From positions 1 to 32,728 of the IMG/VR virus record IMGVR_UViG_2663762948_000007: a DNA stretch of 32,728 nucleotides, one strand, 5' to 3'. Origin of the DNA: a virus. Taxonomy: Duplodnaviria; Heunggongvirae; Uroviricota; Caudoviricetes. The position numbers and the translations under genes were made by a program. A model generated the notes under the pieces. The model did no database searches, was not told where the DNA came from, and saw nothing but the letters and a program-made list of their open reading frames with translations. This document shows positions 14,628 to 16,792 of this stretch, piece by piece (positions within the stretch are counted from its first letter, which is position 1; the number at the start of each line of letters is the position of its first letter).

Positions 14628-14723
14628 CTAACCTCCACGCCCGACGGCGTTCTGGTTCATGACCAGCTTGTAAATCTCTAACTGGAATTTCTGTTCTTCA
14701 GTCATGGGAATAATCTCTGCCAT
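14628..14723 (-). CDS. Possible 31-aa small protein (MAEIIPMTEEQKFQLEIYKLVMNQNAVGRGG)
   Basis: ATG with SD GGAG at 8 nt; stop 2 nt before the HNH start, suggesting translational coupling; below ORF-track threshold. Confidence 0.3.
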   Translation of the reverse strand: MAEIIPMTEEQKFQLEIYKLVMNQNAVGRGG

Positions 14724-15025
14724 TGTTGGCTCCGTTTATCCGTTAAAAGGGATATCAGTTAAGTTATCCCGTGTAGGGTATAAGCCATTGTCGAGACCAC
14801 TCATTGAATGGTCTCTGCAATAACCGATGTCTTTCCATCAGTCCGCCACCACAAAGAATCTTTTTTGCCATAAGGCAGGAGGTTCATCTTTCAGTGGCTG
14901 CCAGTGTTATTTCCCCACTTACTGGCTTGGGTTGCTTCGTGGTACTGCCGTAACTGGTTGCCAAGAATAAATTCCGGTTTCATTATCAAGCCCACCCGTA
15001 GATGGGCTTTGTAATGCCTACATGG

Positions 15026-15496
15026 TTAAATGATTTGCCAGTCTTCGGACAGAACATCAGTCTGACTAGCCAGCCACGGTACTAATTTATCGTCCGCTGT
15101 CTTCATGCAAATGCATGGCAGCGTCACAAGGCCATTAACTCCGTCCAGGTCACACTCAAACCCCCAAGCATTCTGCTGGATAATGAACAGATACATCCCC
15201 TTACCATTCCAGCCAGCACGGGCAACTTTATTCCCCAACTTGAGCGCTTCAATGGCAAGGCCGAAACTTAGCCCTGATACCGGACGATAAGCCTTTTCGA
15301 ATACTTCTTTTGGACTCCAGCTAACGTAGCCATCAAAGCGATCGGTGTTAGGTTTTCCGCCATCAAGATATTCAACCAGATAGCCTTCATCCTCGCCGTT
15401 TTCTCCGGCAGGAAGCTGCCAGCCACGAAAATCGTTATATGCCTGTCTCGTCATCAGAAAGGCGTTAATCAGTTTTACGCCAATATGCTGGGTCAT
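15026..15496 (-). CDS. DUF2829 (Tad2-like) domain protein with about 75-aa N-terminal extension
   Basis: C-terminal half carries recalled DUF2829 hallmarks (ALKxGxKVARxGWNGKGMYL ... LVPWLASQTDVLSEDW); sits in post-Rz moron slot. Confidence 0.55.
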   Translation of the reverse strand: MTQHIGVKLINAFLMTRQAYNDFRGWQLPAGENGEDEGYLVEYLDGGKPNTDRFDGYVSWSPKEVFEKAYRPVSGLSFGLAIEALKLGNKVARAGWNGKGMYLFIIQQNAWGFECDLDGVNGLVTLPCICMKTADDKLVPWLASQTDVLSEDWQII

Positions 15497-15518
15497 AAAA
15501 TTACCTATAGAGTTGGGA

Positions 15519-15542
15519 ATAAAAAGCCCCGCATCGCGAGGC
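15519..15542 (-). terminator. Intrinsic terminator-like hairpin between Rz and the DUF2829 gene
   Basis: Minus strand GCCTCGC-GAT-GCGGGGC followed by TTTTTATT. Confidence 0.45.
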
Positions 15543-15574
15543 TCATTAAATGGACTTTGTGATTTGCAAAAAAA

Positions 15575-16012
15575 TTATTTCAGGCATTGCGTCCTGATGT
15601 ACTCCTGCAGGTAGTTAACCTGCGCGGTTATCCTGTCGATTCCACTTCGGAGACGGTAATAATTGAGTTCAGCATCTGCTGTAAGTCTTGGGCTTTCTCC
15701 ATCGCCCATGCTGCTGGCTCCGGTCGTTGACTTTGTACAGGTGGCGGCGACTTGCAGGCGCTTACGACCAGCAGAAACATCAGCACGGAGACTTTCGATA
15801 GTCGCGTTAGCATCAGCAAGCTCCTTTGTGTATCTGGCGTCAAGTTCTGCTACATCACGTTGACGCTTCTGCATGTCAGCGATTGTGGATGTGGCTTTAT
15901 CGCGCTGCTCTTTGTAGGTAATGGCGTTATCACGGTAATGATTAACAGCCCATGACAGGCAGACGATGATGCAGATAACCAGAGCGGAGATAATCGCGGT
16001 TACTCTGCTCAT
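15575..16012 (-). CDS. Rz: Spanin inner-membrane subunit Rz
   Basis: N-terminal TM then coiled-coil periplasmic domain; follows R. Confidence 0.85.
15628..15813 (-). CDS. Rz1: Spanin outer-membrane lipoprotein Rz1, embedded in the +1 frame of Rz
   Basis: Signal peptide with lipobox VSAC, Pro-rich mature part; SD AAGGAG; fully nested in Rz. Confidence 0.75.
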
Positions 16013-16485
16013 GCATGACTCTCTCTGACCGTTCCGCCTGCTTCTTTGAATTTTGCAATCAGGCTGTCAGCCTTATGCTCGAACTGACCATAACCAGCCC
16101 CCGGAAGTGAAGCCCAGATATTACTGCAACGGTCGATAGCCTGACGAATATCACCGCGATCAATCATCGGCAAAGCGCCACGCTCCTTAATCTGCTGCAG
16201 CGCAACAGCATCCTGGCTTTTCGGAGAGAAGTCTTTCAGTCCAAGTTGCTTACGGTAAGCATCCCACCAACGGGAAAGAAGCTGGTAGCGCCCGGCTGCT
16301 GTTGATTTGAGTTTTGGGTTTAGCGTGACAAGTTTGCGAGGGTGATCGGAGTAATCAGTAAATAGCTCTCCGCCTACAATGACGTCATAACCATGATTTC
16401 TGGTTTTCTGCCGTCCGTTATCAGTTCCCTCTGACCACGCCAGCATATCGAGGAACGCCTTACGTTGATTATTGATTTCCACCAT
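16009..16485 (-). CDS. R: Endolysin, lambda R-type lytic transglycosylase
   Basis: Matches lambda R almost residue-for-residue from memory ([35 protein letters not shown]...). Confidence 0.95.
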
Positions 16486-16792
16486 CTTCTACTCCGGCTT
16501 TTTTAGCAGCGAAGCGTTTGATAAGCGAACCAATCGAGTCAGTACCGATGTAGCCGATAAACACGCTCGTTATATAAGCGAGATTGCTACTTAGTCCGGC
16601 GAAGTCGAGAAGGTCACGAATGAACCAGGCGATAATGGCGCACATCGTTGCGTCGATTACTGTTTTTGTAAACGCACCGCCATTATATCTGCCGCGAAGG
16701 TACGCCATTGCAAACGCAAGGATTGCCCCGATGCCTTGTTCCTTTGCCGCGAGAATGGCGGCTAACAGGTCATGTTTTTCTGGCATCTTCAT
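16469..16792 (-). CDS. S: Holin/antiholin S (dual-start MKM motif)
   Basis: Matches lambda S from memory; Met1-Lys2-Met3 gives S107 and S105 starts at 16792 and 16786. Confidence 0.95.

Follow-up and report, generated by a model that had tools for sequence, protein, structure and literature searches.

Sponge proteins are a major means by which phages disarm nucleotide-signalling immunity of the Thoeris, CBASS and Pycsar types. The founding Thoeris anti-defence 2 sponge, Tad2 of the Bacillus phage SPO1 (Gp34.65; PDB 8SME, 8SMF and 8SMG), is a single-domain protein of 89 aa that contacts 1''-3' gcADPR through W25, N26, I63, T65, D67, H71, W73, S76, T78 and D79, the contact of H71 being water-mediated. 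Members of the Tad2 family inhibit Thoeris I, II, IV, CBASS or Pycsar in differing combinations, and type I Thoeris is not inhibited by some of the homologues. In HgmTad2 (AcrIIA7; PDB 8KBI-8KBM) and in SptTad2 an insertion of 35-41 aa between strands β2 and β5 builds a cyclic-dinucleotide pocket, in HgmTad2 a second pocket next to that for gcADPR. ModTad2 (8V3E, 9EIB) binds His-ADPR and cUMP, not gcADPR.

Sponge domains also occur joined in one chain. According to Tal et al. 2025, such fusion is a route to multi-signal inhibition, and fusion to a known sponge predicts a new one; recent new sponge families came from asking what is fused to known sponges. Published multi-sponge fusions are Acb4-Tad2 (Pasteurella phage Pm86), Tad2-Sequestin and Acb4-Sequestin (phage Ab09). 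A further two-domain sponge, RyR Tad (gp68 of Pectobacterium phage vB_PatP_CB1), was described in a preprint of June 2026. Its C-terminal RyR-repeat domain sponges gcADPR, and its N-domain is given there as an 'unknown fold' of function not known that is often a single ORF. In the crystal this N-domain forms a strand-swapped dimer, in which β1 of the partner protomer completes a five-stranded sheet, and the isolated gp68_N (aa 1-86) showed no anti-type I Thoeris activity.

The gene described here lies in a window of 32,728 nucleotides (the whole of the analysed stretch of virus record IMGVR_UViG_2663762948_000007), a mosaic lambdoid prophage and close kin of E. coli prophages. On the minus strand the order of genes is a Q-like gene, holin, lysozyme, Rz/Rz1, the two-domain ORF, a gap of ~390 nt, HNH endonuclease, TerS and TerL. 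The counterpart of Rz in the matching E. coli prophages is annotated as 'lysis protein'. A tRNA scan of the window found none. The locus comprises the following features:

15026..15496, minus strand: two-domain ORF of 156 aa with ATG start (17.5 kDa, pI 4.7), from the ORF list
15026-15028, minus strand: stop codon of the two-domain ORF
15272..15496, minus strand: N-terminal module, aa 1-75, an SH3-like small alpha/beta barrel without a family name
15029..15271, minus strand: C-terminal Tad2-like domain (DUF2829, PF11195), aa 76-156
15504..15506, minus strand: putative Shine-Dalgarno-like AGG, 7 nt before the ATG, a weak match read from the sequence
15514..15544, minus strand: terminator-like hairpin with TTTATT tail (stem-loop 15544..15524), between the Rz stop and the ORF start, from a consensus scan
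15575..16012, minus strand: Rz spanin gene, from the ORF list, the upstream neighbour that defines the post-lysis slot
15628-15843, minus strand: Rz1, embedded in Rz
16009-16485, minus strand: lysozyme gene
16469-16792, minus strand: holin gene

The initial annotation had assigned the interval 15026-15542 to a two-domain DUF2829 protein. The ORF was located within it, at 15026..15496 of the minus strand, while the upper 46 nt belong to the spacer between Rz and the ORF. Both motifs quoted as DUF2829 hallmarks are present verbatim in the product, GWNGKGMYL at aa 95-103 and LVPWLASQTDVLSEDW at aa 138-153. The ORF is a genuine gene rather than a product of chance, because E. coli ET245 carries an annotated gene with 100% identity (WP_057696179, 'DUF2829 domain-containing protein') and full-length homologues of the two-domain protein number in the thousands. 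The product matches phrog_872 over its full length (E=9e-67), a large family with the same two-domain architecture to which YP_950527 of phage N4 also belongs; the architecture thus extends beyond this prophage. Both halves of the protein are acidic, the Tad2 domain included, and net charge was dropped as an argument on nucleotide binding.

The proposal that the C-terminal ~80 aa belong to DUF2829 was substantiated by a match of aa 77-156 to the Pfam family PF11195, 'Tad2-like', with 92.3 bits (cutoff 25; E=2.8e-26), spanning profile positions 2-73 of 73. A sequence search against the PDB recovers every solved Tad2, namely SPO1 Gp34.65 (1e-16), ModTad2 (1e-15), AcrIIA7/HgmTad2 (2.6e-14) and SptTad2 (1.8e-13). 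Comparison of a structure prediction with Tad2, as suggested in the initial annotation, also points to this family: the full-length AF2 model (mean pLDDT 88.9) is predicted to adopt the Tad2 fold with an N-terminal helix, an antiparallel sheet and helices in the loops. Similar to SPO1 Tad2, which aligns with aa 75-156 at E=1e-16 and belongs to the same Pfam family, the domain has a short β2-β5 insertion; in contrast to the single-domain SPO1 protein, it is preceded by a 75-aa N-terminal module.

The binding site was compared residue by residue. In the order of the SPO1 contacts listed above, the aligned residues are W96, N97, M131, T133, D135, V139, W141, S144, T146 and D147. Eight of the ten are identical, the replacement of I63 by M131 is conservative, and V139 differs from H71. 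By motif, the gcADPR residues W21/N22/G23 and W87/L88/S90/T92/D93 of HgmTad2 correspond to W96/N97/G98 and W141/L142/S144/T146/D147, so that G95-W96-N97-G98 and W141-x-x-S144-x-T146-D147 are the predicted ligand-contact motifs. On profile, fold and pocket residues the C-terminal domain is a bona fide Tad2, which adds one more member to a known family, and it very probably acts as a signal sponge. Since Tad2 homologues are functionally diverse, its ligand is not predictable from sequence.

In the AF2 model the β2-β5 insertion is short, with ~21 aa between the strands at residues 102-106 and 128-132. The window allele thus differs from HgmTad2 in length of the insertion, and the feature that goes along with dual binding of gcADPR and a cyclic dinucleotide, a long β2-β5 insertion, was not found. 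This argues against an extra cyclic-dinucleotide pocket of the HgmTad2 type.

The extra N-terminal domain of 75 aa noted in the initial annotation was confirmed. Neither aa 1-75 nor aa 1-76 gave a match in Pfam, NCBIfam or PADLOC, and searches of the PDB by sequence with aa 1-75, both as single sequence and as profile, gave no match either. Modelled alone, aa 1-75 are predicted with very high confidence (pLDDT 95.2, pTM 0.80). The predicted elements are strands at residues 2-5, 9-16, 37-43 and 58-62 and helices at 17-24 and 63-69, with a further strand at 71-73 in the full-length model, five strands in all. Irrespective of the partner domain, 27 of the 75 positions are conserved to at least 90%. 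Among these, R17, Y20, N21 and R24 occupy one face of the first helix with a spacing of i, i+3, i+4, i+7, and two loops are conserved, G-W26-x-x-P29-x-x-E32 and D45-G-G-x-x-N50. The near-invariant residues are mostly polar or aromatic and are kept on either side of the partner.

Known families were considered as a home for this domain and rejected. DUF1653 (PF07866) is a structural neighbour only, with an hhalign probability of 0.06%. Lockin forms hexameric beta cogs and was reported absent from INPHARED phages, whereas the N-domain occurs in 133 phage records. Sequestin (PF21825) is all-helical and stands as a separate domain in the same proteins; Acb4 (PF13876) is likewise a separate domain.

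An exhaustive phmmer search with aa 1-75 returned at least 1408 cluster representatives; for 766 of these the match had E<=1e-10. The domain is found in N-terminal, internal or C-terminal position in proteins of 72-354 aa. A Pfam scan of the best 150 of the 1408 representatives returned Tad2-like in 55, PF21825/crAss001_48 (the Sequestin sponge) in 37 and PF13876/Phage_gp49_66 (the Acb4 sponge) in 18, with almost no other families; rounded, the partner totals among these 150 amount to ~60 for Tad2, ~40 for Sequestin and ~20 for Acb4. The architectures of the same best 150 of 1408 were counted with local HMMs, with the following result:

Ndom-Tad2: 52, plus 3 with a split Tad2 match
Ndom-Sequestin: 25
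Acb4-Ndom-Sequestin: 8
Ndom-Acb4: 6
Acb4-Ndom: 4
Ndom-Tad2-Sequestin: 2
Ndom-Sequestin-Tad2: 2
Ndom-Sequestin-Acb4: 1
Ndom-RyR: 1
Tad2-Ndom: 1
no recognised partner: 45

The 45 proteins of the last line are a mix of true stand-alone domains, frameshifted fragments and proteins with unknown C-terminal extensions. Stand-alone genes of 73 aa occur in Aeromonas phage Avpx2 and in Pseudomonas phage HHBS14_1, where the gene directly follows an Rz-like spanin and lies two genes upstream of an Acb2/Tad1-hairpin protein. Acinetobacter phage nACB2 carries an N-domain-Sequestin fusion, and in a crAssphage the domain is fused to Acb4. Published homologue lists contain the domain as well: in Table S1 of Tal et al. 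(Sequestin homologues) the 'SWSP' motif is matched 148 times, many of the proteins being N-domain-Sequestin fusions, and Table S4 (Lockin homologues) holds two fusions of a short form with Lockin. N-domain motifs were found neither in the table of tested candidates from the structure-guided sponge screen (Table S2) of the same study nor among the tested sponge candidates in the supplement of Hadary et al.

Altogether, the N-domain is a separate, mobile and very conserved SH3-like module that is joined again and again, whatever the order of the domains, to members of five unrelated sponge families (Tad2, Sequestin, Acb4, RyR-Tad and Lockin). Like the published multi-sponge fusions, the window protein consists of small, independently folding modules in one chain, each of which is also found alone. 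The N-domain shows what is expected of a module in such a fusion, as it folds independently and occurs alone or with other sponges, and it holds the place of a sponge module in these chains, for example in Acb4-Ndom-Sequestin. Every module of the published fusions, in contrast, is a proven sponge, whereas the N-domain is a candidate module without a Pfam model. Because such a model does not exist, the domain is invisible to a Pfam-based fusion search of the kind that led to Sequestin. In the literature searched, no paper names or characterises it beyond a passing remark in the RyR Tad preprint, and as a general sponge-associated module it is undescribed there.

That remark concerns a relative of the same domain. 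BLASTP aligns the window N-domain to gp68 with 33% identity over 67 aa (E=8e-5), hhalign gives a probability of 96.5% (E=7e-10), and the local N-domain HMM detects gp68 at E=8.6e-8. Foldseek matches the window N-domain with the related RyR protein of Yersinia phage TG1 (E=2.4e-4), and a close homologue of the N-domain (P0137) itself carries a RyR domain. At the level of sequence, homology between the window N-domain and the N-domain of RyR Tad (CB1 gp68 aa 1-70) is well supported. In both proteins the domain stands N-terminal to the sponge domain, which is a RyR-repeat sponge in RyR Tad and Tad2 in the window protein. However, in gp68_N, a short and divergent form of the domain, the conserved helix face (R17/Y20/N21/R24) is missing, as are the GW-LP-ENG and DGGKPN loops.

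The relationship to RyR Tad bears on an alternative in which the N-domain is purely architectural, a strand-swapped dimeriser that stabilises or cross-links the sponge oligomer, creating avidity or lattices, so that the protein would be a Tad2 sponge of single specificity. The well-supported homology lends it weight, as the related domain crystallised as a domain-swapped dimer and was inactive against Thoeris I in isolation, and SH3-like folds are typical of interaction modules. On the other hand, Tad2, Acb4 and Sequestin each oligomerise without the N-domain, the domain exists as a stand-alone gene of 73 aa, and it is more conserved than the sponge half that accompanies it. Some 27 residues that are near-invariant whatever the partner and whichever the side are not expected of a mere linker or dimeriser. 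The stand-alone gene, the conservation independent of partner and position and the self-sufficient oligomerisation of the partners lead us to favour a function of its own over a mere scaffold. The negative result with gp68_N and a fold that is not sponge-like keep the scaffold alive as an alternative, which we regard as rather unlikely.

The N-domain could also inhibit by binding a protein. Its target might be a TIR sensor or an effector, as for Tad3-Tad8, which block Thoeris through protein binding, or another conserved host protein such as RNA polymerase; the pathway would then be blocked at two levels. We consider this improbable. The reading followed here is tentative as well: the N-domain might have a ligand or target of its own that is kept constant across its partners.

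Alleles of the gene show how the two halves vary with respect to each other. Few complete E. coli genomes carry the gene (45/5426), and most genome matches are restricted to the half that codes for the N-domain, at ~98% DNA identity. The alleles of phage Kapi1 and of the E. coli ETEC4085 prophage share 74 of 75 residues (~99%) of the N-domain with the window protein, in comparison to 57% (Kapi1) and 38% (ETEC4085) identity in the Tad2 half. With 39 aa the β2-β5 insertion of the Kapi1 allele is 18 aa longer than that of the window protein. In these E. coli alleles the Tad2 half, as judged from the alignments, varies like an exchangeable cassette, with the N-domain in front of it kept constant. 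The post-lysis slot of the ETEC4085 prophage contains two genes ahead of the terminase genes, first the two-domain gene and then a Gp49/Acb4 gene.

A comparable neighbourhood is found in phage N4. Its protein YP_950527 (locus tag gp49, 160 aa) is encoded between an Acb4 homologue, which directly precedes it, and the gene for the virion RNA polymerase, a position inside the anti-signalling hotspot reported for N4-like phages. Similar to the window protein, YP_950527 and its homologues in G7C-like and N4-like phages have two domains; those of N4 are 49% (N-domain) and 38% (Tad2) identical to the window's. N4 is, however, a lytic podovirus, and the window gene stands after a lysis cassette instead. 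No functional study of YP_950527 was found in the literature searched.

In other relatives the gene bears a different label. The near-identical genes of phages Louie (98.7% identity) and Huey are annotated as 'anti-CRISPR protein', and the C-terminal domain is homologous to AcrIIA7, which would be consistent with an AcrIIA7-like anti-CRISPR protein. To our knowledge, type II-A CRISPR-Cas is absent from E. coli. AcrIIA7 is identical with HgmTad2, a sponge for gcADPR and cGG, and in a published re-test its anti-Cas9 activity was reproduced neither in vitro nor in vivo. The annotation of the Louie and Huey genes was most likely propagated by homology, and we judge an anti-CRISPR function to be extremely unlikely.

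The position of the gene had led to its description as a moron in the slot of lambda bor. Lambda bor follows Rz towards the end of the right (late) arm and is a lipoprotein gene with its own promoter in opposite orientation. The comparison holds for the position after Rz, but the resemblance goes no further: in contrast to bor, the window gene points the same way as the lysis genes, no promoter of its own was detected, and its product has no signal peptide. The terminator-like hairpin that was said to separate Rz from the gene is present (stem-loop 15544..15524, minus strand) and consists of 9 pairs, 6 of them G-C, with a loop of 3, followed by TTTATT. Folding of the 78-nt spacer as RNA places the hairpin in both the MFE and the centroid structure at ~-15 kcal/mol, with a z-score of only -1.2. 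A second hairpin downstream of the stop of the ORF (14988-15009) has no T-run. No sigma-70-like promoter was found on the minus strand between 14200 and 16200. With no promoter of its own on its strand, an orientation shared with the late lysis operon and the hairpin upstream instead of downstream, the term moron could not be upheld. Late expression by Q-dependent read-through, as in lambdoid late transcription, would be the simplest reading. With a terminator-like hairpin in front of the gene and no promoter detected, expression would depend on this assumed Q-mediated read-through.

These data also bear on the possibility that the gene serves lysogenic conversion like lambda bor, being expressed from the prophage and altering host physiology, for instance by titrating c-di-GMP or another housekeeping nucleotide, with no counter-defence in lytic growth. 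The post-Rz position with the preceding terminator-like hairpin and the published picomolar affinity of HgmTad2 for c-di-GMP are compatible with it. The lack of a sigma-70-like promoter between Rz and the ATG and the late-operon orientation speak against it, as do the missing long β2-β5 insertion that forms the dinucleotide pocket and the occurrence of the gene family in strictly lytic phages (N4, G7C-like). We therefore consider lysogenic conversion very unlikely.

With moderate confidence we propose instead that this gene of a lambdoid prophage is read as part of the late lysis transcript and encodes a bipartite counter-defence, that is anti-signalling, protein. Its C-terminal domain, a Tad2 in which the gcADPR-contact residues of the inter-protomer pocket are computed to be kept, would assemble into a homotetramer by analogy to the solved Tad2 proteins. 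It would sequester a TIR-derived signal of the ADP-ribose type, 3'cADPR, His-ADPR or N7-cADPR, which one not being predictable, and a Thoeris-type effector would then stay off; a dinucleotide site of the HgmTad2 type is probably lacking. The N-domain, an autonomous module tied to five unrelated sponge families, may dimerise by strand swapping, as seen for RyR Tad in the crystal, and could add a second, invariant binding activity towards a conserved small molecule or target. More speculatively, it could represent an unrecognised counter-defence domain family, either a new sponge or an accessory with a conserved target, and the window protein and N4 YP_950527 would then be inhibitors with dual activity. 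Such a family, overlooked for want of a Pfam model, would be found fused to Tad2, Sequestin and Acb4 more often than any other partner.

By the reasoning that fusion to known sponges points to new ones, the N-domain passes the test more strongly than Sequestin, with at least 1408 clusters, five sponge families and triple fusions. If it binds a signal, one more sponge family would be added, and its carriage by model phages such as N4 would be explained; if it only dimerises, it would show how phages build multi-sponge particles from modules. The E. coli alleles, with a constant N-domain and swapped Tad2 halves, provide a natural experiment on the diversification of sponge specificity, and the post-lysis slot of lambdoid and P22-like prophages is a place where anti-signalling genes may be sought.

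Within E. coli, the N-domain of the gene is 99% identical among alleles. Behind it, three differing Tad2 cassettes were found (window 15026-15271 vs L002:2501-3022 of phage Kapi1 and L007:2283-2762 of the ETEC4085 prophage), with identities to that of the window of 57% (L002) and 38% (L007), and the breakpoint of recombination between the alleles lies near aa 85. One E. coli allele, that of Kapi1, has an insertion 18 aa longer than that of the window allele; in HgmTad2, the corresponding region builds the dinucleotide pocket. Codon 14 (window 15455-15457) encodes Leu in the window allele and in E. coli ET245; in the consensus of the family, as in the remaining E. coli alleles, this position is Pro and belongs to an A-x-P-M-T-R motif.

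Near-identical genes in Escherichia phages Louie (PQ850616, 36932-37399) and Huey (PQ850609) are annotated as 'anti-CRISPR protein'. This label was presumably propagated from AcrIIA7, for which the anti-Cas9 activity was not reproduced, and is probably misleading.

Among the N-domain homologues, P0164 (354 aa, N-domain plus Tad2) exhibits an in-frame interruption of the Tad2 domain by an HNH_3 + AP2 module of ~125 aa, which sits within the b2-b5 insertion and resembles a homing endonuclease. Further homologues (P0150/P0208, P0268/P0203, P0259 and P0244) carry C-terminal extensions of 50-140 aa without a known sponge domain, examples being a common 'DPDYAWGWHCNIAMAAFDAGCPH' region, a WDGH domain and a YceI-like domain. 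As fusion partners of a sponge-associated N-domain, these extensions are candidate anti-signalling modules of kinds not yet recognised.

The N-domain/Tad2 gene is adjoined by a gene for the Acb4 sponge (Gp49/PF13876) both in the related P22-like prophage of E. coli ETEC4085 (L007:1678-2762) and in phage N4 (L003:2609-3462). An anti-signalling hotspot similar to that described for N4-like phages thus seems to occupy the slot between the lysis cassette and the terminase genes in prophages of the lambdoid and P22-like types. In the crAss-like phage C0521BW15 (L006:2001-2450), Acb4 is fused to a short-form N-domain. This fusion gene is adjoined by an RNAP subunit gene, and a DUF1653 gene is located three genes upstream. 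The fold nearest to that of the N-domain is likewise that of DUF1653; no sequence relation between the two was found.

Downstream of the window gene, no convincing ORF was found in the ~390-nt gap to the HNH endonuclease gene (window 14639-15025), in which two features were noted:

14988-15009, hairpin of 7 bp without a T-run
start at 14722, minus strand, possible ORF of 31 aa

The gap may be where an HK97-type packaging module has its cos region.
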